In this document: positions 8,720 to 63,320 of the stretch, piece after piece
Layout: each line of letters begins with the position of its first letter
How positions within the stretch are numbered: position 1 is the first letter of the stretch
Source: an uncultured Bacteroidota bacterium
GTDB lineage: Bacteria; Bacteroidota; Bacteroidia; Bacteroidales; P3
Direction: 5' to 3'
NCBI GenBank assembly: GCA_902776365.1
Contig: CACYPU010000002.1
Location: 131,180 to 195,179 of the forward strand
DNA length: 64,000 nucleotides
Notes under the pieces: model-generated
Seen by the model: the letters and a program-made list of their open reading frames with translations, nothing else
Database searches by the model: none
Told to the model about the DNA's origin: nothing
Translations under genes and position numbers: made by a program

Positions 8720-9133
8720 CTACTTGAAAAAATCGAAGAAGAAGTACAAGGCGGCGTATCTCTGTGGCACTCCTTTGGCAGAGCCTATGCTGCTATTGTT
8801 GCTGTTGCGGACGGTGCCGTCGCTTTCCACCTTGCCTATCTGGCTGTTATTGCTGTTACGGACGGTGCCGTCGCTCTCTATTTTGCCAATATGTCTACCC
8901 GAACGGTCACGGACGGTGCCGTCGCTTTCGAGTTTGCCTATTTGAGCGCCGTTGCTGTTGCGGATGACGCCGTCGCTCTGGATGTTGCCAATCTTAAAAT
9001 GGTTGCTGCTGCGGACGGTTCCGTCGCTCTCGATGGTGGCAATGGCGGCGTTGTTGCTGTTTCGGATAGTCTGTGCCTGCCCCGTGGACAATAGGCATAG
9101 AATAAAGAATACAATGTAAAATAGACGTTTCAT
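8720..9133 (-). CDS. secreted tandem-repeat protein (6 x 17-aa units)
   Basis: The start is trimmed to MKRLFYIVFFILCLLSTGQAQ (ATG at 9133). The mature part consists of TVRNSNNSQIGKVESDG-type repeats. Confidence 0.7.
   Translation of the reverse strand: MKRLFYIVFFILCLLSTGQAQTIRNSNNAAIATIESDGTVRSSNHFKIGNIQSDGVIRNSNGAQIGKLESDGTVRDRSGRHIGKIESDGTVRNSNNSQIGKVESDGTVRNSNNSSIGSAKGVPQRYAALYFFFDFFK
8765..9070 (-). repeat. 51-nt coding tandem repeat, about 6 copies
   Basis: The recurring peptide unit [TV][IV]R.S[NG]...IG.[IL][EQ]SDG was read directly from the ORF. Confidence 0.8.
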
Positions 9134-9175
9134 TGTTCTGTCTTTCCCCCAATAACGTAAAACCGACCGAAATAT

Positions 9176-9209
9176 TGTACAAAAGCAGGTTGCGTTTGGC
9201 AACCTGCTT
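9176..9209 (-). terminator. intrinsic terminator downstream of tRNA-Met
   Basis: 11-bp stem AAGCAGGTTGC/GCAACCTGCTT followed by TTTTGT on the minus strand. Confidence 0.75.
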
Positions 9210-50919: not shown

Positions 50920-53900
50920 TTATTTTACTAATTCGTTTGCTATCAATTCCGCCTGTTTCAGCACCGTCTCGGTGGCCAATGCCTGCATGTCGGGCGGGTA
51001 GCCATACTTGCGCAACAACCGCTTCACCGCCACTTTCATCTTAGCCCTTACGTTCTCCTTGATGGTCCAGTCGATGGTGCTGTTCTTACGAATGGTCTCG
51101 GTGAGTACCACAGCCAGCTCTCGCAGCTTGTCCTTGCCCATCAACTCGCGGGCACTCTCGTTGTCGGCTACGGCGGTATAGAAGGCGTATTCGTAGGTTT
51201 CCAGCCCCATCTCCTGTGCCGCGCTGTCGCTGGCCACTATCTGTTTGCTGAGTTTGATAAGCTCGTCTATTACCTCGGCGGCGGAGACTATTTTATTGTG
51301 GTAACGTGTGATGGAGCCGTCGAGCATCTCCATCAACGTGCGACTCTCTACGAGGTTGTATTTCGACCGTGCCTTGATTTCATCTTCTAGCAACTTCCGT
51401 AGAACTTCAAGAGCGATATTCTTGTGTTCCATGCCTTTCAACTCCATCAGGAATTCCTCAGAGAGGATGGAAATATCGGGTTTCTTGATGCCGGCGGCAT
51501 CGAAGAGGTCTATCACCTGTTCCGACACCAGCGCTTGGTCTATCACCTGCCTAATGGTGGTCTCAATCTCCTCGTTGGTGTGTCCGCCGCCTTTGGCATC
51601 GAACTTGCACAGGCGTGCTTTCACGGCTTGGAAGAAAGCCACTTCGTCTTTTACATCCATTGCCTCCTCATTCGGAATAGCCAATGCGAAAGCCTTTCCC
51701 AAGGAGGTTACCTCGTTGACAAACCTTATCTTGCCGTCTTCGAGTCCGAGGATGAAATCTTCGGCTTTGAGTATCCACGACAACTTGCCTTTGGTGTCGG
51801 AAGAGAAATATTGCGGCCATTCTAACCCGTGCAGCATCTGTTCCACCACCTCCAGCTTCTCTTTCATCAGTTCCACCGCCTGTGACTGCTGCTGTGTGGG
51901 GTCGCCCTTGCCGCCGCTGTCGGAATAGAACGAAAGCGCTTTCTTCAGGTCAGCAGCGATGCCGAGGTAGTCCACCACCAAGCCGCCGGGCTTGTCCTTA
52001 TAGACGCGGTTCACGCGGGCAATGGCCTGCATCAGATTGTGGCCCTGCATGGGCTTGTCGATATAGAGGGTATGCAGACAGGGCACGTCGAAGCCCGTGA
52101 GCCACATGTCGCGCACTATCACCATTTTCAACTCATCATCAGGATCTTTCATCCTTTCGGCTAGCAGATGGCGGTCGGCCTTGGTGGTATGGTGCTTGGC
52201 AATGGCGGGACCGTCGGAGGCCGAGGTGGTCATCACCACCTTCAACGCTCCTTTGCGCAGGTCGTCGCTGTGCCATTCGGGCCGCAGCTTGATGATTTTG
52301 TCGTAGAACTCCACGGCAATCCTGCGGCTCATGGCTACAATCATGGCTTTGCCCTCGAATACTTGCTGGCGTGCCTCGAAGTGTTCCACGATGTCGCGGG
52401 CGATGTTCTTCACACGGTTGGGGCTGCCTATCAGGGCTTCCAGCTGTGTCCACTTGGCTTTGGCCTTCTGCACATCGTCCAGTTCCTTCACATCGAGTTC
52501 CTTGTCCAGTTCTTCCACCAGCTTGCGTCCTTCGGCGCTCAACTCCACCTTGGCCAGACGGCTCTCGTAGTAGATACGCACCGTGGCGCCGTCCTCCACC
52601 GCCTGTGCGATGTCATAGACGTCGATGTAGTTGCCGAAGACAGCGGGTGTGTTCTTGTCGCTCAGCTCGATGGGCGTGCCGGTGAAGCCGATATAGGTGG
52701 CGTTGGGCAGCGCGTCGCGCAGGTATTTGGCGAAGCCGTACTTGATTTCGGAGCCCACCACCTCGTCGGCTTCGTTGCGCACATCCTTGGTCTTGGCGCC
52801 GAAGCCATACTGAGTGCGGTGCGCCTCGTCGGCTATCACCACTACGTTGGTGCGGTCGGTAAGCCTGTCGTATATATTGCCCTCTTCGGGCTGGAATTTC
52901 TGTATGGTAGTAAAAACCACGCCACCCGACTGCACCGCAAGCAGACCTTTCAAATGTTCACGGCTATCCGCCTGCACGGGTGTCTGTCGCAGCAGTTGTT
53001 TGGAGGAGACGAAGGTCTCGAAGAGCTGGTCGTCGAGGTCGTTGCGGTCGGTGATGACCACGATGGTGGGGTTGTTCAGCCGCTGCACTATCTTGCCGGC
53101 ATAGAACACCATCGACAGCGACTTGCCGCTACCCTGCGTATGCCATACTACACCGGCGCGGTGGTCGCCCGTATGCTGTTCACGCACTGTCTTGAAACCG
53201 AAGTTCTCCGGTGATTCGGCAGCCATCGGCATACTGCTGTTGATGCCCGAGGCCCTCAATGTGGACTCCACGGCTTTGTTGACGGCATAGTATTGATGGT
53301 AGGCCGCCAGCTTCTTCACCGTGGTGATAGTGATTTGGCCCGTGGCTTTGTCCTCGTGTTTGTCTTTTTCAAAGACGGTGAACGCCTGCACCAGGTCAAG
53401 CAGCGTCTCGGGGTTCAGCATCCCATTTAGCAGCACCTCCAACTCGCCTTTCAAGTGTGAGGCTATGGTCTCGCCATCTTCGCTTTTCCATGCGGTGAAT
53501 CGGCTCAGTCCCGACGACAGGGTGCCAGCCTTGGCCTCCAAGCCGTCGCTGATTACGATGACCTCGTTATATCTGAACAGCATCGGTATTTGCTCCTTGT
53601 AGGTGCCTATCTGGTCGTAGGCCTTGGTGATGGTGGCCTCCTCGTCGGCGGCATTCTTCAGTTCCATCACCACCAGCGGCAAGCCGTTGACGAACAGCAC
53701 CATGTCGGGCCGCAGGTTATGACCATTCTCTATGACGGTGAACTGGTTGACCACCGTGAACTCGTTGTTCCACGGGTCGTCGAAGTCCACCAGCCACACC
53801 TTCTTTCCGCGCTCCTCACCCTCTTCGTACACCGACACCGTCACGCCCTGTGTCAGCAGCTCGTGGAACTGCTCGTTGTCGGTCAGCAGATCGGTGGAGC

Positions 53901-54132
53901 CGATGCGCAGCACCATCTTGACGGCCTCGTCGAGCACCGCAGCAGGCAGCGACGGGTTGAGCCGCCGCACCGCTGCCTCCAGCTTTTCGCGCAGCACCAC
54001 CTCGCCCAACGATGTCCGCATAGGCGACTGTCCGTCCGGCGCGATATCAGGGCCGTAGAGGTATTCATACCCACGGCTCTGCAGTATCTCGATGGTCATC
54101 TGCTCAATGTCCGATTCCGTCAGCTTGGTCAT
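50920..54132 (-). CDS. hsdR: type I restriction endonuclease subunit R
   Basis: SF2 helicase motifs (HTQGSGKS, VIADEAHRTQ) and an HsdR N-terminal nuclease region. The ATG at 54132 (MTKLTESDIEQ) is preferred over the TTG at 54156. Confidence 0.9.
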   Translation of the reverse strand: MTKLTESDIEQMTIEILQSRGYEYLYGPDIAPDGQSPMRTSLGEVVLREKLEAAVRRLNPSLPAAVLDEAVKMVLRIGSTDLLTDNEQFHELLTQGVTVSVYEEGEERGKKVWLVDFDDPWNNEFTVVNQFTVIENGHNLRPDMVLFVNGLPLVVMELKNAADEEATITKAYDQIGTYKEQIPMLFRYNEVIVISDGLEAKAGTLSSGLSRFTAWKSEDGETIASHLKGELEVLLNGMLNPETLLDLVQAFTVFEKDKHEDKATGQITITTVKKLAAYHQYYAVNKAVESTLRASGINSSMPMAAESPENFGFKTVREQHTGDHRAGVVWHTQGSGKSLSMVFYAGKIVQRLNNPTIVVITDRNDLDDQLFETFVSSKQLLRQTPVQADSREHLKGLLAVQSGGVVFTTIQKFQPEEGNIYDRLTDRTNVVVIADEAHRTQYGFGAKTKDVRNEADEVVGSEIKYGFAKYLRDALPNATYIGFTGTPIELSDKNTPAVFGNYIDVYDIAQAVEDGATVRIYYESRLAKVELSAEGRKLVEELDKELDVKELDDVQKAKAKWTQLEALIGSPNRVKNIARDIVEHFEARQQVFEGKAMIVAMSRRIAVEFYDKIIKLRPEWHSDDLRKGALKVVMTTSASDGPAIAKHHTTKADRHLLAERMKDPDDELKMVIVRDMWLTGFDVPCLHTLYIDKPMQGHNLMQAIARVNRVYKDKPGGLVVDYLGIAADLKKALSFYSDSGGKGDPTQQQSQAVELMKEKLEVVEQMLHGLEWPQYFSSDTKGKLSWILKAEDFILGLEDGKIRFVNEVTSLGKAFALAIPNEEAMDVKDEVAFFQAVKARLCKFDAKGGGHTNEEIETTIRQVIDQALVSEQVIDLFDAAGIKKPDISILSEEFLMELKGMEHKNIALEVLRKLLEDEIKARSKYNLVESRTLMEMLDGSITRYHNKIVSAAEVIDELIKLSKQIVASDSAAQEMGLETYEYAFYTAVADNESARELMGKDKLRELAVVLTETIRKNSTIDWTIKENVRAKMKVAVKRLLRKYGYPPDMQALATETVLKQAELIANELVK

Positions 54133-54137
54133 AAGTG

Positions 54138-55157
54138 CTATATGTTTAGTTTCCAATATCCGTTCTTGTCCTCGCCTATACGTATTAGAATACCCATTTC
54201 TTTCAATGCCGCAATATTTCGTGTAATAGTTGATCTGTCCACATCAAGAGTTGTTGCCATTTCATCGTATGTGGTATAAGGATTATTTCTTAGAATATCT
54301 ATAATGGCAGCTTGTCTCTTAGTTATATTTACAGGTGCATTTACAGGTGCATTTACAGGTGCATTAAGCGGCTCACCTTTATGTTGCAGTACGGACTTAT
54401 GTATCTCCTCCAGCATAAAGTCGATGAAGGGACCACACTCGCCCTGCTTGGTACTTTGGGCGATGGCGTCATAGTAGGCCTGCTGGTTGGAATAGACCAT
54501 ATTCTCCACAGGCAGGTGCGCAAAAGCAGGGTGCCAGCGGCTGAGGATGAGCGACTGCCACAGGCGGCCCATACGTCCGTTGCCATCGATAAACGGATGG
54601 ATAAACTCGAACTCATAATGGAAGACACAGCTGCGCACCAACAGGTGGTCGTCGGCATTCTTCAGCCAGTCGAAGAGGTCGGACATCAGCCCATGCACCC
54701 TGTCGGATGGAGGGGCCATGTGTACCAGGCCGCTCTCGGAATAGACGCCTACGCCGCCCCTGCGGAAATGACCTGCGTCATCGGTCAAGGCGGACATCAT
54801 CAGTCCGTGAGCCCGCAGTAGGTCGTCCATCGAGAAGGGGTCGAGCTTTTCAAACTCATCATACACCCGTATGGTGTTCTTCACCTCCTGAATCTCGCGG
54901 ATGGGTGCCACCACCGTCTTGCCGTCAAGGATATCGGCCACCTCACTCTCCCGAAGACGGTTGCCCTCTATGGCCAATGAGCTATGGATGGTCTTGATAC
55001 GGTTGGCCTTGCGCAGCCGCAAGGCATCGCTCTGCTCCATACGGATGGCAAACCGCTCCATCTGGGCGGCGATATCCGCCACCAGCCCCACTGCCTTCGC
55101 CGACAATGTGAAAGGTGGTTTGTATCCATTATATGTCTTTGTCTTTTTTTCAGCCAT
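54138..55157 (-). CDS. Fic family protein (class II, N-terminal inhibitory helix) with C-terminal wHTH
   Basis: Fic motif HPFIDGNGRMGR, inhibitory motif SLAIEGN, and a C-terminal HTH (..VDRSTITRNIAALKEMGILIR). Confidence 0.85.
   Translation of the reverse strand: MAEKKTKTYNGYKPPFTLSAKAVGLVADIAAQMERFAIRMEQSDALRLRKANRIKTIHSSLAIEGNRLRESEVADILDGKTVVAPIREIQEVKNTIRVYDEFEKLDPFSMDDLLRAHGLMMSALTDDAGHFRRGGVGVYSESGLVHMAPPSDRVHGLMSDLFDWLKNADDHLLVRSCVFHYEFEFIHPFIDGNGRMGRLWQSLILSRWHPAFAHLPVENMVYSNQQAYYDAIAQSTKQGECGPFIDFMLEEIHKSVLQHKGEPLNAPVNAPVNAPVNITKRQAAIIDILRNNPYTTYDEMATTLDVDRSTITRNIAALKEMGILIRIGEDKNGYWKLNI
54328..54363 (-). repeat. 3 perfect 12-nt repeats (NAPV x3) in the Fic linker
   Basis: TTTACAGGTGCA x3. 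Confidence 0.9.
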
Positions 55158-55233
55158 AATTGTTAGTCTCCCTTCTTCGATCCCTCTATGTGGGTTCTAT
55201 GATCCTTCGGTGATGGTTCGGTGATATTCAACA

Positions 55234-55257
55234 AATAGGATTATGATTAATCCTATT
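55234..55257 (-). terminator. 10-bp hairpin overlapping the stop of the 812-aa gene
   Basis: AATAGGATTA/TAATCCTATT with a weak U tract. Confidence 0.3.
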
Positions 55258-57691
55258 TTTCTTGACCACCATCTGTTCCTCCTGTAATTCTTCTGATATA
55301 TCTTTGCTTTCCTTTTCCGACTTTTTTCAGTTCCTCTTCTATTTGAGTATATTTTTTCTCTTTTTCTTCATTTCTCAACTTCATTTCTTCATATGTGCTA
55401 ATCATTTTCTCTGCCGCTGGAATCATCTTATACCCTTTGCTCTGTATCTCTTTTGCAAAACTTACAAAATCATCCAAATTATAATTCAGTGTAAGAGCAG
55501 TTTTAGAGTCGTTCTTATCTGATTCATCACTATCGTTCGAATAAATCAATTCCTCATTCTTGGTCATTAATTCATGTATTTCCTTCTTTAACTCCCTTTT
55601 TAATCTAGGTAATTCTTTTCCTCGTAAATCAACACCTGACTCAATTAGAGATTTTATTTCCTCCCAACTCTGATTTACAGCCTCTGCCAAGAAGGGATTT
55701 CCTAATAGATTTACAATCGCTTTATTTGACGAATCAAACAAACCTATTTCTGACAATAATGCCACTAGCACTTTTGGTCTTGCCACTACAGAGCTATAGA
55801 GATTAACTTCTTTTGCACATCTTATTGCACGACTTGAACTTGTAACGAGATATGCGATTCCAAATAACATCTGATTATTTCTTTGGGGAATATTTTTATT
55901 GAGTTCTCTAGCCAATAGGTAAAGTTCAGCGTCAGTTTTTGCAATGCGCCAATTCTCCTCAGGAGTTCTATATGCAGCCTTGGGCGTTTTAATTGTTTCG
56001 TCGTATATCAACTGGGTTAGATTATCACAATCTACCTCGCTAATACTTACACTATCAATCAAGGACTCATCTCCAATCACAACACCTTTCGGAAGTCTAT
56101 GTTCCATTACTTCTAACATAAAATTGTATTCATCAGTCTCATCATAAATATTTTGTATATAGGATGAGAATGTGTCATCTGAATACTCATTATCATTACG
56201 GAGAATATTAATATAATAATCTATAACAAAAACATTTGATAATTTTTCATATACCACAGTTTCATTTACAGCAGTAAAAGTATTCCTAAAATAATTGAAA
56301 TTTCTTTTTGCGAAACTAGCATGAATGACAACTTCTTCTACTACACTCTTTGGTATATACACTTTACAACCATTATTTAACAACTCTTTTAGAAGGACTG
56401 TGTATATGTCACTAAACGGCCCGTATTTAACCATACAATTAAGGACAAAATCAGTATCCAAGATATACATCTTGCTTGCGAATGTTTTTTTCTGGAATCC
56501 TGCCAACATTGGATCCAATCTCATCAATTGAGTTCCAATATATGCTCTTGCCCATAATAAAATTGTTTGGAATTGTTCATCATTTGGCTTGCTTAGTATT
56601 TCTCCAAGTCCATACACAAGGCATTCACCCAAGTCAGGTTGGATGCTATCAGTAAGTATTTTTATCAGTTCTTTCTGACGTACCATCCCTGAAACAATAT
56701 TATCTTCATTGATTGCCAGGTCTTGCCCATAATATTTGAAAAATAAATTCAATGTTTTTTGTATATTATTCCATATTTGTTTGATTTCACTATCACTTAA
56801 AGGTATTCCATCTGCAAGTTCTTGCATTTTTGTAATAATATCATTAATCAGGGCATTTGTTCGTTGTTCCATATGAGAAATGCCTTCCATCATCTCAGAC
56901 TTTGCTTTCGTTGATGCTGAGATTTTTTCCTCTTCGTTACTTATAAGACCCTCCCTTTTCAATCTTTCTATCGATGCTCTTATCTGCGATTCGTCAATAA
57001 TACAGCCAAATTCCTTATGGAATTCGTCAATAATTTCGCTTCGTGACAAACCACCCGAATATGTTGAAATTAATGACAATATGGATTTATCAAACAAGGA
57101 TTTTTTTTGTGTTTTTTCTTTTAGCTTCGGAGAAAGTGAAAAAAGCAACGTGCTTTTAATCATCGAACTTGTTAGCAAACTTTCCCCATCTGTTGAGAAA
57201 TAATTATTTTTCAAAAAATCCTCCTCTATTTGAGCTTTAATGTTGGGGAAGTATCTTGAAATAATATCTTTGTGTTCTCCTGTCACAAGAATAAATGTTG
57301 ATAAATCAAATATCTGTAATGTCTTTGAATGCTCCATTCTGAATTTGCTTTCCAATCCCTTTATGCTATTTACAGATTGTGAAGTCACAAAAACCAGTTC
57401 ATCAAATACAACATTATTATCATTTAATTTTTTTACGGTAGCTTTTATTTTTGCATTTGAATCCTTCTGCATTGTAAACTGGAATACTCGGCTTATTTTT
57501 GTTTCGTCCTGATAAATTTCAGAACTTATAGCATCAACACCATCATCTTTAATGCCACCGACTTTTCTTATTCGAGGAAATCCGTAATATCCCATAACCT
57601 CCAAACACAACTGCTCGAATTTAAAGAAATCAGTATAATTACTTAATGCAAGTTCAATTATATCCATATTATATAATTTAATATTATTCAC
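55253..57691 (-). CDS. Mrr-like PD-(D/E)xK nuclease / wHTH / PIN-like / coiled-coil fusion protein (uncharacterised)
   Basis: 812 aa. Residues 24-76 read FEQLCLEVMGYYGF..GGIKDDGVDAIS..RVFQFTMQK (Mrr_cat-like). Residues 215-251 look like a wHTH. Residues 408-625 have YILDTDFVLN, VVEEV and KTDAELYLLA (PIN-like acidic residues). The tail is Lys/Glu-rich. Confidence 0.6.
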   Translation of the reverse strand: MNNIKLYNMDIIELALSNYTDFFKFEQLCLEVMGYYGFPRIRKVGGIKDDGVDAISSEIYQDETKISRVFQFTMQKDSNAKIKATVKKLNDNNVVFDELVFVTSQSVNSIKGLESKFRMEHSKTLQIFDLSTFILVTGEHKDIISRYFPNIKAQIEEDFLKNNYFSTDGESLLTSSMIKSTLLFSLSPKLKEKTQKKSLFDKSILSLISTYSGGLSRSEIIDEFHKEFGCIIDESQIRASIERLKREGLISNEEEKISASTKAKSEMMEGISHMEQRTNALINDIITKMQELADGIPLSDSEIKQIWNNIQKTLNLFFKYYGQDLAINEDNIVSGMVRQKELIKILTDSIQPDLGECLVYGLGEILSKPNDEQFQTILLWARAYIGTQLMRLDPMLAGFQKKTFASKMYILDTDFVLNCMVKYGPFSDIYTVLLKELLNNGCKVYIPKSVVEEVVIHASFAKRNFNYFRNTFTAVNETVVYEKLSNVFVIDYYINILRNDNEYSDDTFSSYIQNIYDETDEYNFMLEVMEHRLPKGVVIGDESLIDSVSISEVDCDNLTQLIYDETIKTPKAAYRTPEENWRIAKTDAELYLLARELNKNIPQRNNQMLFGIAYLVTSSSRAIRCAKEVNLYSSVVARPKVLVALLSEIGLFDSSNKAIVNLLGNPFLAEAVNQSWEEIKSLIESGVDLRGKELPRLKRELKKEIHELMTKNEELIYSNDSDESDKNDSKTALTLNYNLDDFVSFAKEIQSKGYKMIPAAEKMISTYEEMKLRNEEKEKKYTQIEEELKKVGKGKQRYIRRITGGTDGGQEK

Positions 57692-57702
57692 TATATTTAA
57701 TA

Positions 57703-58941
57703 TTATCCGATTTTCACTTCGCCTAACATCAGTCTAGGCAGTAATGCATCGCGTTGTGCAGACAGCGCGAGTATCTGTTGTTTATTTGCATTTATTTTAT
57801 CAAAATAAGGTTTTACTTGGTTGTTGAAGTCAATAACAACTTTTTCATCTGTTGGTACATTCCAGTCCATCTCATAAAGCGCTGCCTTATAGTTTAGGTT
57901 GTGTATTCCTGAACTACCATTCTCTAAGTTGAAGAATTCGCCCTGCTTGTGTAGATAACGGAAAAAACAATAAACAAAGAATGTGTGTCTTTCATCAACT
58001 CGTAATAATCTACAAAAGTTTGAAAACACAATAGGGTAATCGAACAATTGCTTTACTCCTTCATTAATATATGCAACTCTGCCTGTGGAGCAAGTATCCG
58101 TACCGCCAGATATTTCTAGGATAATATCTCCATTGTTCGGCTTGATTTTCTCGTATTTGCTTGGCTTTACATATCGAAGAGGTGTTCTTGTCGCAATCCC
58201 GTCATTCAAGTCAGCAACATCCGCACCCCTTAGGCATCGTACTGGCATACCGCTCTCACCTTCAGGTGTCTCCGTTCCCCATTCTCCACCTATTGTTTCA
58301 ATAACATAGTCTCCCAGTTTGCCTTCTTTCCAGGTGGGGTCGGGGTTTTCGATGAAGTAGTGGCGGAAGAGGGTTTCGGCGAGGGCTTCAAGGGTCGCGT
58401 TCTCCCGATTCAACAAATCTATCTTGTCATCCAACGAACTCAACACCCCCGCAATCCGATTCTGCTCGTCAAGTGGCGGCAATTTTAAAACAATATTTTC
58501 AAAATCACTTTTATTCACAATAGGAACAGCTGTCCCATCCCCACCTAATACTCTCAATGTATCATAAGCATTCAAAAGCGAGTAATAGACAAAATCATTA
58601 TCGTACTCTTTGTACGGAACAATTGCGTTTATTTGCTGATTCGTAATACACATGACGTTATTCATAACCACTTTCCCCATATCAGAACCTATGCAGGTCA
58701 CAAGGATGGATTTGGGTGGCAATACTTTCTTTTTTAGTCGTTCAAGGCCGGATACCGAAAGCTTGCGAATACTATCCTTCGCATATTTACCATAATTACA
58801 ATAATCCGATGGGGTTATAAAAAGAAAATTATTCCCCCAATCTTCAGGATTACGAACCGAAGGTGTCTTCCCTGTAATAATTTCTCCTATTTCTCCCAAC
58901 CTATATTCTTTCCATTCACTCATAGGCAGTATTTCTAACAT
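57703..58941 (-). CDS. hsdS: type I restriction-modification specificity subunit
   Basis: Two target-recognition halves are separated by the conserved helix LPPLDEQNRIAGVLSSLDDKIDLL, with a C-terminal ..RDALLPRLMLGEV. The alternative start is at 58923. Confidence 0.9.
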   Translation of the reverse strand: MLEILPMSEWKEYRLGEIGEIITGKTPSVRNPEDWGNNFLFITPSDYCNYGKYAKDSIRKLSVSGLERLKKKVLPPKSILVTCIGSDMGKVVMNNVMCITNQQINAIVPYKEYDNDFVYYSLLNAYDTLRVLGGDGTAVPIVNKSDFENIVLKLPPLDEQNRIAGVLSSLDDKIDLLNRENATLEALAETLFRHYFIENPDPTWKEGKLGDYVIETIGGEWGTETPEGESGMPVRCLRGADVADLNDGIATRTPLRYVKPSKYEKIKPNNGDIILEISGGTDTCSTGRVAYINEGVKQLFDYPIVFSNFCRLLRVDERHTFFVYCFFRYLHKQGEFFNLENGSSGIHNLNYKAALYEMDWNVPTDEKVVIDFNNQVKPYFDKINANKQQILALSAQRDALLPRLMLGEVKIG

Positions 58942-58985
58942 AAAGTATTCATCATTACCAATCTATAGCTGATAAAAAAATTGTA

Positions 58986-59906
58986 TTACATAAACTCGAA
59001 TGCCAACAATGTTTTTACTCTCTGTTTCTCTTTTTCTGTCATATGTCGAGCAATATAAGGATATGTATTAATAAACACTTTCTTCATTTTTTCAAAGGCT
59101 GTTTTATCCATATCATGTTCATCTTGAATACTATTAATAAAGGCCATCAATCTCATTATCCATACAGTCGGATTGCATAATTCATCAATAGATTCCCATC
59201 CACCATCATTAAGGCCAGACTTTCTATATTTTTCTCGTAATAGATGGTCACACACTCCACAGCATGCAAAATACATATCTTTATAAACAGTTTTTTTCTC
59301 TTTTTCAAAAGTATCACTGTCATACAAGAGTACATAGTTTCCATGCTCACTCTCTAACAATAAGTTTTTACCACAATAATCACAACATAGCTCGGCATTA
59401 TTGTCAAATATTTTTGACGGTGTCGGATTTTCAATTTGATACTTTTTAAATGATGTGGGGAAATATCTACAAGCAATCTTGTGTCCATCAAGATTGTTTA
59501 ATAAAAAGGATTCTATCTTTTCGCGATCAAAAACGAGATAATGCTCTTGTCCTTGTAAAATACCAGACAAAGACGTGGATGCCAACGTTGAATAAACCCC
59601 CATAAAACCATCACAATGATGTTGCTTTAACCTATCGCTTATATTTATCTCGTCACTATCATTTACAGCACGACCTGAATGAGCAAAATGTTTGCAGCTC
59701 ACTAACCAACGGATTGTATACTCACTTGTTATGCCTTTTATTACTTCATCAACAATCAAATCCTTTTTTCCGTCAGCTCCTCTGTCTGGATCTTGTACGA
59801 TTCTATATCCAAGGTAAGATAAAAAATCTCTTGTAAGCAGTTCAAAGGTATCTTGCAAACCTGTGCCTTTGTTTGCTTCTGGTATTTCTTTAAAATCTAA
59901 AATCAT
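58986..59906 (-). CDS. Mrr-like PD-(D/E)xK domain protein with CCxxC..CCxxC module (uncharacterised)
   Basis: 306 aa with FELLTRDFLSYLGY..GADGKKDLIVDE..IRWLVSCKH, then CCDYCGK (174-178) and CCGVCDH (215-219). Confidence 0.6.
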   Translation of the reverse strand: MILDFKEIPEANKGTGLQDTFELLTRDFLSYLGYRIVQDPDRGADGKKDLIVDEVIKGITSEYTIRWLVSCKHFAHSGRAVNDSDEINISDRLKQHHCDGFMGVYSTLASTSLSGILQGQEHYLVFDREKIESFLLNNLDGHKIACRYFPTSFKKYQIENPTPSKIFDNNAELCCDYCGKNLLLESEHGNYVLLYDSDTFEKEKKTVYKDMYFACCGVCDHLLREKYRKSGLNDGGWESIDELCNPTVWIMRLMAFINSIQDEHDMDKTAFEKMKKVFINTYPYIARHMTEKEKQRVKTLLAFEFM

Positions 59907-60139
59907 ACTTTTCTCTTTTTTTATTACATCTTTTCTATTACGACATTGTACCTTACTATATTTTTTTTCTACCTAATAATTATAACTAATAATCAATACT
60001 TTTTCATAAAGATTACGCGGTCGTTGATTTTATCGGTGGGGGGCCTGGTACAACAGCTCACGAATGTACGTATTATCGGTGTGGTTTTCTATCACAGTAT
60101 TCATCTCCTTTTTATTAATATTTTTTCCTTTCGCTCATA

Positions 60140-60397
60140 TTACAGTTTTTCTTTGATATCCTCTATCTCTTGTTCCAATTTATCACGCTCCTCAAAATGT
60201 TTGTTCTTTACTAAGCCAGCCAACGGAGAGAATGGACTAATATGCGTTATTTCATTCAATCGTTCGTAACGTTCTTCCTTTTTCCGTAGTTTCCTTTGCA
60301 AATAGCCTTTGCTATTTCTTACCATAAAGACTAATGTTGCCACCATCACCACTAGTGATGCGCATGCGATTATTATTGTTAGTGTTTCCGTACTCAT
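60140..60397 (-). CDS. small single-TM coiled-coil protein
   Basis: 85 aa with an N-terminal TM (LTIIIACASLVVMVATLVFMV) and a charged helical tail. Confidence 0.45.
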   Translation of the reverse strand: MSTETLTIIIACASLVVMVATLVFMVRNSKGYLQRKLRKKEERYERLNEITHISPFSPLAGLVKNKHFEERDKLEQEIEDIKEKL

Positions 60398-60420
60398 ATC
60401 GTTTCTATTCCTTATTTTTC

Positions 60421-60454
60421 AGTTATTAAGTAATCCTTAATAACTGGTTTTTTA
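60421..60454 (+). terminator. plus-strand intrinsic-terminator-like hairpin
   Basis: 11-bp perfect stem CAGTTATTAAG/CTTAATAACTG followed by G TTTTTT. The orientation is opposite to the surrounding operon. Confidence 0.45.
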
Positions 60455-60558
60455 ATGTTTATTTGTTACCGTCACTTAATTCTCTTTCGCTTGGCAATTG
60501 TTCCACAAGTTGTGGAATTATTTGTTTCTCAAGCACCCCCAAGTTGAGGGTGTTTTTC

Positions 60559-61680
60559 CTATTTAGATATGTTTTCCTCGATCAGTTTTTGTAGTTCCTC
60601 TTTGCTCGGCAAATAGGTCTGGTATTTGCTGGCGAAGATTTGGTTGTTGTCTTTCGGTAGGGTAATCTCAACCATTGCATCGCTTTTGTCAGTACACAAC
60701 AAGATTCCAATGGTCGGATTCTCCTCCTCGGTTTTCACGAAGCGGTCGTAGTAGTTGACATACATCTGCATCTGCCCAAGATCTTGATGCTTCAATGTTC
60801 CTCGTTTGAGGTCTATCAACACAAATGCTCTAAGCAGACGATTGTAAAATACCAAGTCCACACGGAAATGCTGCTCGTCGAAGGTAAACCGCACCTGCCG
60901 CCCGACAAAAGTAAATCCCTTACCCAACTCCAGCAAGAAAGTCTGCAGATGGTCTATCAGACGCTGTTCCAACTCGCTCTCGCTATATTGTGGCAACTCT
61001 TTCAGCCCAAGGAACTCCAACACGTAGGGGTCTTTCACCACATCCTCAGGCTTCTCTATTATCTGTCCTTTTTGTGCTAGCGACTTCACTCCCTTCTTGT
61101 CTTTGCTAAGAGCCAACCGTTCATACAACGAACTGTCGAACTGTCGTTGTAATTCCCGCAGACTCCAGTTATTCTCCGTGGCCTCAATCTCATAGAAACG
61201 CCTTTCGTCGGGGTTCTCAATGCGCATCAGCTTCAAATAGTGCGACCAACTGAGGGTGAAATGCAATTTGTCAGACGCTGTCTGACCTTTTTGAGAAGAT
61301 TCCGCAGACAGTGTCTGCGAAATTGGAGAAATCCGAGACGGTGTTGCGGAATTTTCTTCTTTCAATGATTTTCTAGACGGTGTTTGGAAAATTTGAATTC
61401 TCTGCGAATAGATTACATAGAACTGTCTCATTTGTTCTATGTTTCTTTCAGAGAATCCTTTTCCGAATTTCCTTGTAAGCCTATTGGACAATTGCCTAAT
61501 AACAGCTTTCCCATAATTAGCTCGATAGTTGCCTTGCTGCTCATCCTCTACAATCATCCGACCTATCTCATAATAGGTATAGACCATGGCAGTGTTGACC
61601 GCCGTGATGGTGCGTTTGCGGGCTTCTTCTATCAGATGCTCTATCTTTTCTCCTAAATCTATCTTCTGTATCTGCTCCAT
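60559..61680 (-). CDS. PDDEXK nuclease domain protein (YhcG/DUF1016 family)
   Basis: 373 aa with an N-terminal DUF1016-like helical region and a C-terminal ..RVDLVFYNRLLRAFVLIDLKRG.. nuclease core. Confidence 0.8.
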   Translation of the reverse strand: MEQIQKIDLGEKIEHLIEEARKRTITAVNTAMVYTYYEIGRMIVEDEQQGNYRANYGKAVIRQLSNRLTRKFGKGFSERNIEQMRQFYVIYSQRIQIFQTPSRKSLKEENSATPSRISPISQTLSAESSQKGQTASDKLHFTLSWSHYLKLMRIENPDERRFYEIEATENNWSLRELQRQFDSSLYERLALSKDKKGVKSLAQKGQIIEKPEDVVKDPYVLEFLGLKELPQYSESELEQRLIDHLQTFLLELGKGFTFVGRQVRFTFDEQHFRVDLVFYNRLLRAFVLIDLKRGTLKHQDLGQMQMYVNYYDRFVKTEEENPTIGILLCTDKSDAMVEITLPKDNNQIFASKYQTYLPSKEELQKLIEENISK

Positions 61681-61682
61681 AA

Positions 61683-63203
61683 TTAGTCAATCTTTATTTT
61701 TGACAGGTTCTCCAGTATCACTTTGTTCAGGCGTTCTTCTTCTTTCAGCTGGGCTTCCAGTTCGGCGCGGAGGGCGGTGAAACGTTCGGCGAAGTTGAAG
61801 TCGTCTTCCTCTTCGGGTAGACCGACATAACGGCCGGGGGTGAGCACATAGTCCAGTTCGGCCACACGGCTGACGGGCACCGAGGCACAGAAGCCCGGCA
61901 CATCGGCATAGTCCTTAGACTCGTCGCGCCAGCGGTGGTAAGTGTCGGCGATGGTGTGGATATCTTCCTCTGTCAGCTCGCGTGTGCGACGGTTGATAAG
62001 ACGGCCCATATTGCGGGCATCGACGAAGAGTATCTCGCCAGCCCTCTTTTGGCGGTTGCGGGTGACGAACCACAGGCAGGCGGGTATCTGTGTGTTAAGG
62101 AAGAGCTTGGCGGGCAGGTTGACGATACAGGCGATGAGGCCTTTGTCGATAAGCGCACGACGGATTTCGCCTTCGCCTCCTGTTTTTGACGTCAGCGAGC
62201 CTTTGGCCAGAACGAAGCCTGCCTGCCCGTTGGGGGCTAGGTGATAGATAAAGTGTTGTATCCAGGCGAAGTTGGCATTGCCGGCAGGCGGTACGCCATA
62301 CTGCCAGCGGGCGTCGCCACGCAGCTGGTCGCCACTCCAGTCGCTGTCGTTGAACGGCGGGTTGGCAATGACGAAGTCGGCCTTCACGTCCTTGTGGGCA
62401 TCGTTAAGGAACGATCCTTCGGTGTTCCACTTCACCTGCGAGGCGTCGATGCCGCGGATGGCGAGGTTCATCTTGCAGAGGCGCCAGGTGGTCTGGTTGC
62501 TCTCCTGACCGTAAATGGAGATATCCTCCACACGTCCCTGATGCTGACGCACAAACTTGTCGCTCTGCACGAACATGCCGCCCGAGCCACAACAGGGGTC
62601 AAGTACACGGCCGTGATAGGGTTCCAGCATCGTCACCAGCAACTCCACAACGCTCCTCGGCGTGTAGAATTGTCCACCCTTCTTGCCTTCTGCCAGAGCA
62701 AACTCGCCAAGGAAATACTCGAACACGTGCCCAAGCAGGTCGGCGCTGCGCGTGCTGGTGTTCTGCAGGGTAGAGTTGCCGATAAGGTCAATCAGCTCGC
62801 CCAGCGACGTGGGGTCAAGGTTGGGACGGGCAAAAACCTTGGGCAGCACGCCTTTGAGCGTCTTGTTCTCACGTTCGATAGCATCCATGGCATCGTCAAT
62901 AAGCTTGCCAATCTGCGGGTTCTTGGCATCGGCCACCAGACGGCTCCAGCGGGCACTCTCAGGCACATAGAACACATTCTCGGCTGCATACTCCTCGCGG
63001 TCCTCCGGGTCGGCACCGTCAACTTGTTGCTTCAGCAGCTCATTGTACAGTCGTTCAAATTCAACAGAAATATAGCGCAGGAATATCAGTCCCAGCACCA
63101 CATGCTTGTATTCCGCCGCATCGATGTTTTTGCGCAGTTTGTCCGCCGCCTTCCACAATCGCTTTTCCAGCGGTTCCTCTAAAGTCTCCTTTTTCTTAGC
63201 CAT
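61683..63203 (-). CDS. hsdM: type I restriction-modification methyltransferase subunit M
   Basis: The start is trimmed to MAKKKETLEEPLEKRLW. It has the HsdM N-domain (YKHVVLGLIFLRYIS), motif I DPCCGSGGMF and motif IV NPPF. Confidence 0.92.
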   Translation of the reverse strand: MAKKKETLEEPLEKRLWKAADKLRKNIDAAEYKHVVLGLIFLRYISVEFERLYNELLKQQVDGADPEDREEYAAENVFYVPESARWSRLVADAKNPQIGKLIDDAMDAIERENKTLKGVLPKVFARPNLDPTSLGELIDLIGNSTLQNTSTRSADLLGHVFEYFLGEFALAEGKKGGQFYTPRSVVELLVTMLEPYHGRVLDPCCGSGGMFVQSDKFVRQHQGRVEDISIYGQESNQTTWRLCKMNLAIRGIDASQVKWNTEGSFLNDAHKDVKADFVIANPPFNDSDWSGDQLRGDARWQYGVPPAGNANFAWIQHFIYHLAPNGQAGFVLAKGSLTSKTGGEGEIRRALIDKGLIACIVNLPAKLFLNTQIPACLWFVTRNRQKRAGEILFVDARNMGRLINRRTRELTEEDIHTIADTYHRWRDESKDYADVPGFCASVPVSRVAELDYVLTPGRYVGLPEEEDDFNFAERFTALRAELEAQLKEEERLNKVILENLSKIKID

Positions 63204-63227
63204 GAATTCTTTATGATTAACAAAATG

Positions 63228-63235
63228 CAAAAATA
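63228..63235 (-). promoter_or_regulatory. -7 box TAnnTTTG for the R-M operon
   Basis: Minus-strand TATTTTTG, 25 nt upstream of the ATG at 63203. Confidence 0.6.
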
Positions 63236-63320
63236 CGAATTTTCCACGACATGGACAAATTATATTTAAAAAGGTTTTCAACATAGCATCAACCTGCAAT
63301 CACCCTACCATCTCCTATCA

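Follow-up and report, generated by a model that had tools for sequence, protein, structure and literature searches.

What is encoded by the gene that lies between hsdS and a fic gene in a Type I restriction-modification (R-M) operon of an uncultured Bacteroidota bacterium, and does its product take part in defence? The locus was analysed within a window of 64,000 nucleotides (nt; GenBank assembly GCA_902776365.1, contig CACYPU010000002.1, positions 131,180 to 195,179). An earlier note, made from the letters of this window, had described the gene product, here called the target, as a fusion of an Mrr-like nuclease, a winged helix, a PIN-like region and a coiled coil, and had proposed a sensor-effector defence protein. 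Our analysis places the target in a large protein family that has no name as yet. The family is a candidate for anti-phage or anti-mobile-element defence, which we regard as its probable role, with the core of the target as the likely detector and its N-terminal nuclease as the likely killing module. The constituent domains belong to known superfamilies, and the protein fails every curated family cut-off that we tested.

The longest open reading frame (ORF) runs uninterrupted for 812 codons from a GTG at 57691 to a TAA (55253-55255). At the composition of the gene (33% GC) a stop codon is expected about every 11 codons, and the probability of 812 stop-free codons is about 1e-32; the frame named in the earlier note is genuine and lies on the minus strand, which that note had left unstated. 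Because all close homologues (55 of 55) start at the methionine of MDIIE, we took 55253-57667 as the likely coding sequence (CDS), with an ATG at 57667 and a product of 804 amino acids (aa), which differs at two residues from the database protein P0001. From the stop codon of hsdS to the likely ATG the distance is 35 nt, in place of the 11 nt that had been reported. Residues are numbered here as in the family, and ORF numbers are higher by 8; in ORF numbering, all motifs that had been quoted were found at the residues given for them. A scan for sigma-70 promoters and terminators gave counts close to the shuffled expectation, the promoter types of Bacteroidota being outside the models of the scan. 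The protein is divided as follows.

55253..57691, minus strand: longest ORF, 812 codons from GTG.
55253..57667, minus strand: likely CDS, 804 aa, from the ATG common to homologues.
57218..57667, minus strand: Mrr-type PD-(D/E)xK-like nuclease module, residues 1-150, ending in an RYFP junction motif; conserved E18, D41, D45, Q63, T/S65, K73 and T77.
56912..57112, minus strand: winged helix-turn-helix, residues about 186-252; Foldseek matches to MarR, PadR, MotA and S19e, probability 0.9-1.0.
56516..56911, minus strand: helical stalk or linker domain, residues about 253-384, of no recognisable family.
55733..56515, minus strand: PIN-like metallonuclease domain, residues about 385-645, with a helical insert of about 110 residues (456-568).
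55256..55732, minus strand: C-terminal helical region, residues about 646-804, with an NPFL motif, a conserved GY (G745/Y746) and long Lys/Glu-rich helices.

Mrr_cat (PF04471) was the sole Pfam match of the N-terminal 160 aa, at 18.5 bits (E 0.0022), below its gathering cut-off of 21 bits. At the level of the family the Mrr-type assignment holds: 21 of 69 members matched Mrr_cat at E<=0.01 (best E 1.4e-5), and the predicted alpha-beta-beta-beta-alpha-beta core is present (H14-27, E33-36, E51-54, E60-65, H70-83 and E90-95; H, helix; E, strand), with a low-confidence DxGxD loop. The only PADLOC match of the target was a weak one, to the restriction endonuclease domain of a protein associated with prokaryotic Argonaute (pAgo; 14 bits, E 0.0035). 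Among the 60 members that carry the module, E18 and D45 are invariant (60/60 each), and Q63 (57/60) and K73 (58/60) are nearly so. The position two residues after Q63 (65), where an (E/Q)xK site has its Lys, is Thr or Ser in 58 of 60, and K73 is conserved instead. The catalytic Lys proposed earlier, K76 in ORF numbering (family K68), is not conserved; the Lys that is conserved is K81 (family K73). We read this as a variant PD-(D/E)xK site, which may be catalytically active. Foldseek matches of the full-length model include EcoT38I (probability 0.91, 152 columns) and Avs4, the aligned region not being reported.

The full-length model (predicted local distance difference test, pLDDT, 69.5) matched mostly winged-helix regulators, the best being MarR, PadR, IclR, MotA and S19e (probability up to 1.0), which bears out the winged helix. 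Sub-threshold Pfam matches to MCM_C and PaaX and a PDB alignment to the winged helix of histone H1 point the same way. At the other end of the protein, Lys and Glu make up 30% of the last 130 residues against 18% of the whole, in line with the Lys/Glu-rich end that had been noted, and long helices are predicted there.

Because no PIN domain appeared among the Foldseek matches of the full-length model, the PIN region was modelled separately, from a 15-sequence alignment. This model was confident (pLDDT 83.5, predicted template-modelling (TM) score 0.80) and has a three-layer alpha/beta/alpha fold with a parallel sheet, as in solved PIN structures; the insert of about 110 residues sits after the second strand. 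Its top five PDB matches are minimal RNase P proteins of the HARP/PRORP type, including 8ssf, 7e8k, 7e8o and 7e8j (probability 0.87-0.99; TM-score to the target 0.38-0.53), followed by 2fe1, 7vwo and 2hww, which represent the PIN proteins PAE0151, M. tuberculosis VapC and SMG6. The top viral fold match is annotated 'PIN like domain' (probability 0.98). Profile matches within the family to Pfam PIN, PIN_3, PIN_4, PIN_5, PIN_8 and PIN_12 all begin at the LDTD strand. Within the PIN clan the window protein itself matches PIN_5 only (15.3 bits; cut-off, 27), and one distant relative (P0198) passes the cut-off of PF01850 (25.8 versus 23.6 bits). The PIN-like call is borne out by the domain model, its HARP/PRORP- and VapC-type matches and this relative.

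Across 124 sequences D404 and T405 are invariant (124/124 each), D406 is found in 118 with Glu in 5 more, E445 in 121 and D579 in 123; H449, N478 and R567 are other nearly invariant residues of the domain. The fourth acidic position (611) is Ser or Thr, in line with the Ser read there before, and D406 provides an extra Asp in the DTD motif. The acidic residues are equally conserved in proteins with and without the N-terminal module, the long and the short forms.

A full hidden Markov model search returned 1549 clusters at 50% identity (E<=1e-3), of which 277 remained at E<=1e-30. Relatives occur in Bacteroidales, Zixibacteria, Anaerolineales, Planctomycetota, Desulfovibrio, Clostridium and others. 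No cluster of the family bears a functional name, and close homologues are without a precomputed Pfam domain. For the target itself there was no above-threshold match in Pfam, NCBIfam, PADLOC or PHROGs; sequence and profile searches of PDB chains returned noise only, and a second, word-indexed homologue search, run with the 69-sequence alignment, found only close relatives already known. The search for loci was seeded with alignment A1, the diverse alignment A3 being too divergent.

The N-terminal module is present in 60 of 124 aligned representatives and absent from the other 64. These short forms, of about 600-660 aa, begin just before the winged helix. At each of the 22 short-form loci open to assessment, a gene for a small membrane protein is tightly coupled to that of the core, with a spacing of -11 to +31 nt or a 4-nt overlap. 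The partners fall into three families. In eight loci the partner lies upstream and has 129-143 aa with about three hydrophobic segments; in nine it has 250-281 aa with one hydrophobic segment near residue 190, and lies upstream in four and downstream with a 4-nt overlap in five; in the remaining five it belongs to a distinct family of 253-264 aa. The membrane partners tested had no match in Pfam, PADLOC or PHROGs, and short forms, partners and the relative P0136 described below had none in PADLOC.

A 565-aa gene upstream of one short-form clade had been considered as a third type of partner and was rejected: it is Lamassu LmuB, present in only two of the five loci of the clade, whose true partner is a downstream membrane protein with a 4-nt overlap. 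LmuB (E 1e-114) lies 5-11 nt upstream of the short-form core at L073 5126-7959 and L080 5129-7959 and is lacking from the three sister loci; we take it for a neighbour within the island and not for a partner. A 366-aa gene that precedes LmuB at both L073 and L080 may be LmuA.

A second kind of exchange involves the nuclease itself. In P0136 the same core is fused, at the same junction, to a different and canonical Mrr_cat module (DGKKD...LVSCKH), and both kinds of Mrr-type module end in the RYFP junction motif. Over residues 1-157 of orf306, a neighbour of the target in its own operon, the P0136 module shows 57% identity (E 3e-60). The family of this module is made up of small proteins from E. 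coli, Acinetobacter and others that carry the annotation 'restriction endonuclease'. The same mobile nuclease module thus occurs both free-standing, in orf306, and fused to a core of the target family, in P0136. BLASTP of orf306 against the N-terminal module of the target itself gave no significant similarity, so that the two are linked only through P0136 and the multiple alignment.

As to genomic neighbourhoods, which the earlier note had proposed to examine, homologues recur at Type I and Type III R-M genes, CBASS, Hachiman, Lamassu, an SIR2/MmeI island and the edges of mobile elements. Of the two outcomes that the note had named as telling against its reading, neither arose: profile and fold searches do point to PD-(D/E)xK and PIN-like folds, and defence neighbourhoods recur among the observed loci. 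Relatives 55-58% identical to the target lie at the edge of an integrative element (an integrative and conjugative element, ICE) beside its integrase, next to SIR2_2, an MmeI-like enzyme and an ATPase/DUF4276 pair, and near HNH_4, methyltransferases and CoiA_N. Distant relatives adjoin AbiU2 together with a CBASS operon, Hachiman and a Type III res gene, Lamassu LmuB or a DUF2326/AAA_23 gene; others lie beside unrelated Type I R-M genes (L034, L035/36, L046 and L083), on a plasmid-like element or beside an integrase. Most relatives, including those of 55-58% identity, are outside R-M operons. Separately, a gene for a methyltransferase-HIT fusion was seen directly beside 56-58% relatives (L033 4413-6582, L038 1680-2540 and L039 2371-3285), with an HNH_4 gene as well in L033, and may be another defence-island component or partner.

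In 19 of 21 loci the gene has a lower GC content than its flanks (target, 33% versus 55%). The family is nearly absent from viruses, with 3 loci in 2.9 million viral contigs, and tblastn found no match in 72,556 PLSDB plasmid records or in 50,697 GenBank phage records.

In the window, the target is one of four genes embedded between hsdM and hsdR, in the order hsdM, DUF1016/YhcG, orf306, hsdS, target, SoFic-type Fic gene and hsdR on the minus strand. Its reported place between hsdS and the fic gene is confirmed, and the whole set falls within a single hsdM...hsdR operon. Embedding in R-M operons has served with success to predict defence genes (bioRxiv 10.1101/2024.01.29.577857).

61683..63299, minus strand: hsdM, Type I methyltransferase, start of the operon.
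60559..61680, minus strand: DUF1016/YhcG PD-(D/E)xK gene, PADLOC candidate PDC-S02 (E 7e-146).
58986..59906, minus strand: orf306, canonical Mrr_cat-type module with a Cys-rich tail.
57703..58941, minus strand: hsdS, Type I specificity subunit, directly upstream of the target.
54138..55157, minus strand: Fic protein with C-terminal helix-turn-helix, SoFic match (E 2e-47), directly downstream of the target.
50920..54156, minus strand: hsdR, Type I restriction subunit, end of the operon.

Whereas hsdM and hsdR have a GC content of about 55%, the target and orf306 have 33%. Members of the target family, 61-100% identical to the target, lie between hsdS and hsdR in six Bacteroidales loci. Across the related operons the target diverges to 62-73% identity, versus 80-94% for hsdM and hsdR, and the co-embedded genes vary (SLFN/AlbA_2-ATPase, DUF1016, Trypsin_2, Fic). 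The slot between hsdM and hsdS in orthologous operons holds either an SLFN/AlbA_2-HATPase_c_4 gene or a DUF1016 and a Trypsin_2 gene (L001 6570-8327; L003 7925-8755). The Bacteroidales R-M operon acts as a variable cargo site, and in this lineage the target is best read as horizontally acquired cargo in a variable slot of a Type I R-M operon, together with three other embedded genes.

The nearest public relative of the operon, L015, comes from an uncultured Bacteroidales metagenome-assembled genome and is 88-93% identical in DNA over the operon only: the similarity spans 50929-63203 of the window and stops at the hsdM...hsdR borders, the flanks being unalignable. Either the operon has been placed in differing genomic contexts or it is mobile as a unit. 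L015 is without orf306, and its hsdS differs in the first half (74% identity overall), such that 1.6 kb of the window (58479-60118), with orf306 and a different first target-recognition half, stand in place of about 0.4 kb (8765-9189) in L015. This suggests a cassette exchange that would also have changed the specificity of the R-M system. In orf306 a Cys-rich tail (CCDYCG...CCGVCDH), which gave weak TRASH-like matches, comes after the Mrr_cat-type module (aa 1-157). The roughly 650 bp between orf306 and the DUF1016 gene (59907-60558) are AT-rich with short ORFs only, and contain a terminator-like hairpin with a 12-bp stem (plus strand, 60419-60447).

How might such a protein work? What we observed are the domain folds, the conserved residues, the exchange of modules, the genomic settings and a foreign base composition; a defence function, a division between sensing and killing, the substrates and an activation step are what we infer. 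The constant part consists of the winged helix, the helical stalk, the PIN-like metal-dependent nuclease and the C-terminal helices; it would bind nucleic acid and detect or process a substrate specific to the invader. The variable part, which would be the killing module, is in the target the fused N-terminal Mrr-type PD-(D/E)xK nuclease and in sister branches another Mrr_cat nuclease or a small membrane protein with a gene of its own. Activation may occur by assembly through the helical regions, upon which DNA would be cleaved by the N-terminal nuclease; RNA or structured nucleic acid may be a further substrate, cleaved at the PIN-like site. By analogy, a constant core with interchangeable modules would match the split of known defence families into a sensing or processing core and exchangeable effectors, and because of that pattern we favour the core as detector and the N-terminal nuclease as killer. 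The sensor-effector idea of the earlier note thereby gains independent support from the module swapping within the family, while we infer which module senses and which kills.

A broader proposal, to which we give slightly less than even confidence, is that the family forms a widespread undescribed defence system in which an NTPase-free sensing core of winged helix and PIN-like domain is combined with interchangeable killers, either of two Mrr-type nucleases or of three small membrane proteins, and, in some lineages, has become part of Type I R-M operons, where it would provide a further layer of defence.

Several observations weigh against the assignment of the core to detection and of the N-terminal module to killing in a defence protein. 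The nearly invariant PIN active site would be expected of a catalytic effector no less than of a sensor. The N-terminal module is without the canonical Lys of (E/Q)xK and may be inactive or work differently, and for the small membrane partners a role in sensing or anchoring, in place of one as effectors, is conceivable. Every profile match of the window protein itself is below the curated cut-offs, and the Foldseek E-values are weak (about 0.05) despite the high probabilities. Finally, several distant loci are flanked by ordinary metabolic or housekeeping genes, and the recurrence of defence neighbours is that of observed loci, counted without a background control.

The principal alternative, which we regard as unlikely, reverses the roles. 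Here the PIN-like domain would be the sole effector, an RNase of the VapC/HARP type that cleaves tRNA, rRNA or mRNA and brings about abortive infection, and the Mrr-like module or the membrane partner would be a sensor, anchor or regulator that recognises, for example, modified or foreign DNA. Consistent with this, the PIN acids are nearly invariant in both architectures, the best fold and profile matches are RNA-cleaving PIN proteins (HARP/PIN_5 and VapC), and the N-terminal module has no canonical catalytic Lys at the +2 position. Yet E18, D45, Q63 and K73 of that module are conserved to the degree of an active site, the same type of Mrr_cat module also exists as small stand-alone proteins annotated 'restriction endonuclease', and the parts usually swapped as effectors are nucleases and small membrane proteins.

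A position between hsdS and hsdR in six related Bacteroidales operons, like that of prrC, raises the question of a guard: the target would be silenced by the Type I R-M complex and freed when a phage anti-restriction protein disables that complex. For PrrC itself, PMC2610378 describes silencing by the R-M enzyme to which it is linked and activation through an anti-restriction factor of the phage, and the distant relatives beside unrelated Type I R-M genes (L034, L035/36, L046, L083) would also accord with it. We nonetheless judge this quite improbable: the 55-58% relatives and most distant ones have no R-M genes nearby, the short forms are paired with membrane proteins rather than with Hsd subunits, and the target contains neither an ABC-ATPase nor a HEPN domain.

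Very unlikely, in our judgement, is a Type IV modification-dependent restriction enzyme, in which modified DNA would be recognised by the winged helix and cleaved by the Mrr-type nuclease, with the PIN-like region in a purely structural role. The target does hold the pair of an Mrr-type nuclease and a winged helix that characterises Mrr and the winged-helix fusions among Type IV enzymes (PMC11037411), and it has R-M neighbours. Half of the family, however, lacks the nuclease module and has membrane partners instead; the PIN active site is strongly constrained; and the winged helix resembles MarR/PadR-type regulators, with no DpnI-type reader among the matches listed.

A role outside immunity, as an addiction or competition module of mobile elements or as a housekeeping nucleic-acid processing enzyme, might account for the copies at ICE edges and on a plasmid-like element and for the distant loci with housekeeping neighbours only, but is scarcely credible in view of the patchy distribution, the foreign base composition, the recurrent defence-island contexts and the scarcity in plasmid and phage records (none in 72,556 and 50,697) and in viral contigs (3 in 2.9 million).

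If the proposed defence function is correct, a sizeable family that is now functionally unannotated (about 1,500 clusters at 50% identity, from many phyla) would join the catalogue of bacterial immunity, with a core unusual in combining a PIN-like nuclease and a winged helix with no ATPase. The occurrence of the same core with a nuclease fused to it in some members and a membrane protein encoded apart in others would then be a natural experiment in the exchange of effectors. Guilt-by-embedding in Type I R-M operons still yields families missing from current defence databases; the target operon has four embedded genes, two of which appear to share a mobile Mrr-type nuclease module. As the gene is present in gut and rumen Bacteroidales, it may matter for phage resistance in those communities.

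How does the target compare with systems already described? The earlier note could name no described system of this layout, and we came upon none either: PADLOC-DB v2 and the papers searched gave nothing significant. The target is not among the systems and candidates of PADLOC-DB v2.0.0, including its PDC, HEC and guilt-by-embedding entries (10.1101/2024.01.29.577857), and literature searches returned no description of its architecture.

HARP/PIN_5 minimal RNase P proteins and VapC-type PIN proteins share with the target an alpha/beta/alpha PIN-like fold with parallel strands and a helical insertion, and acids after strand 1, on the helix after strand 2 and on a later helix. They are single-domain enzymes or toxins of 130-200 aa, whereas the target domain is one of several in a protein of 804 aa and is set apart by its insert (about 110 residues), Ser/Thr at the fourth acid, an extra Asp (DTD) and scores below all Pfam PIN cut-offs. 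Placement in HARP/PIN_5 itself is contradicted by the size of the target (804 aa and multidomain, versus about 170-205 aa for the matched PDB chains) and by its PF08745 score (15.3 versus 27 bits). VapBC does not fit either: the proteins of the target family have 600-800 aa, and their partners, where present, are membrane proteins.

DUF4935/PIN_12 proteins are PIN-like, with a long helical insert after strand 2 and then an unassigned C-terminal region, and are usually monocistronic (Matelska et al. 2017, PMC5499597). The target likewise has its insert after the second strand, and three relatives matched PF16289 at E<=0.01; the DUF4935/PIN_12 proteins are, in contrast, about 350 aa long and without an Mrr module or winged helix, and the best score of the target family against PF16289 was 21.1 bits versus a cut-off of 32.

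Mrr_cat (PF04471) acts as the N-terminal effector in Avs4 and in partners of short pAgo. The N-terminal module of the target resembles it in its length of about 150 aa, in the pattern FE...GxxDxGxD...(Q) and in its alpha-beta-beta-beta-alpha-beta order, and differs from it in having Thr/Ser for the Lys of (E/Q)xK, with a Lys ten residues later conserved, and in scoring below the Pfam cut-off.

PrrC consists of an ABC-ATPase N-terminal domain and a nuclease C-terminal domain. With PrrC/EcoprrI the target has in common its place between hsdS and hsdR, in an operon that also holds PDC-S02 (DUF1016) and a SoFic-type gene. Gene position alone fits, since no ATPase or HEPN match was found in the target, and the two proteins have no sequence or domain kinship. 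PrrC is almost exclusively embedded in Type I R-M operons (10.1101/2024.01.29.577857), whereas most relatives of the target lie outside them.

Membership in Lamassu would require more than was found, as LmuB adjoins the core in only two of five loci of one clade and no match to an LmuA or LmuC model was obtained. Together with Avs, short pAgo and CBASS, Lamassu nevertheless follows a like evolutionary logic. The core of the target differs from theirs in being a winged helix and a PIN-like nuclease, without an ATPase, an Argonaute or a cyclase; in all of them, as in the target family, one core persists and the part attached to it changes between a nuclease and a membrane protein, either fused to the core or encoded next to it.

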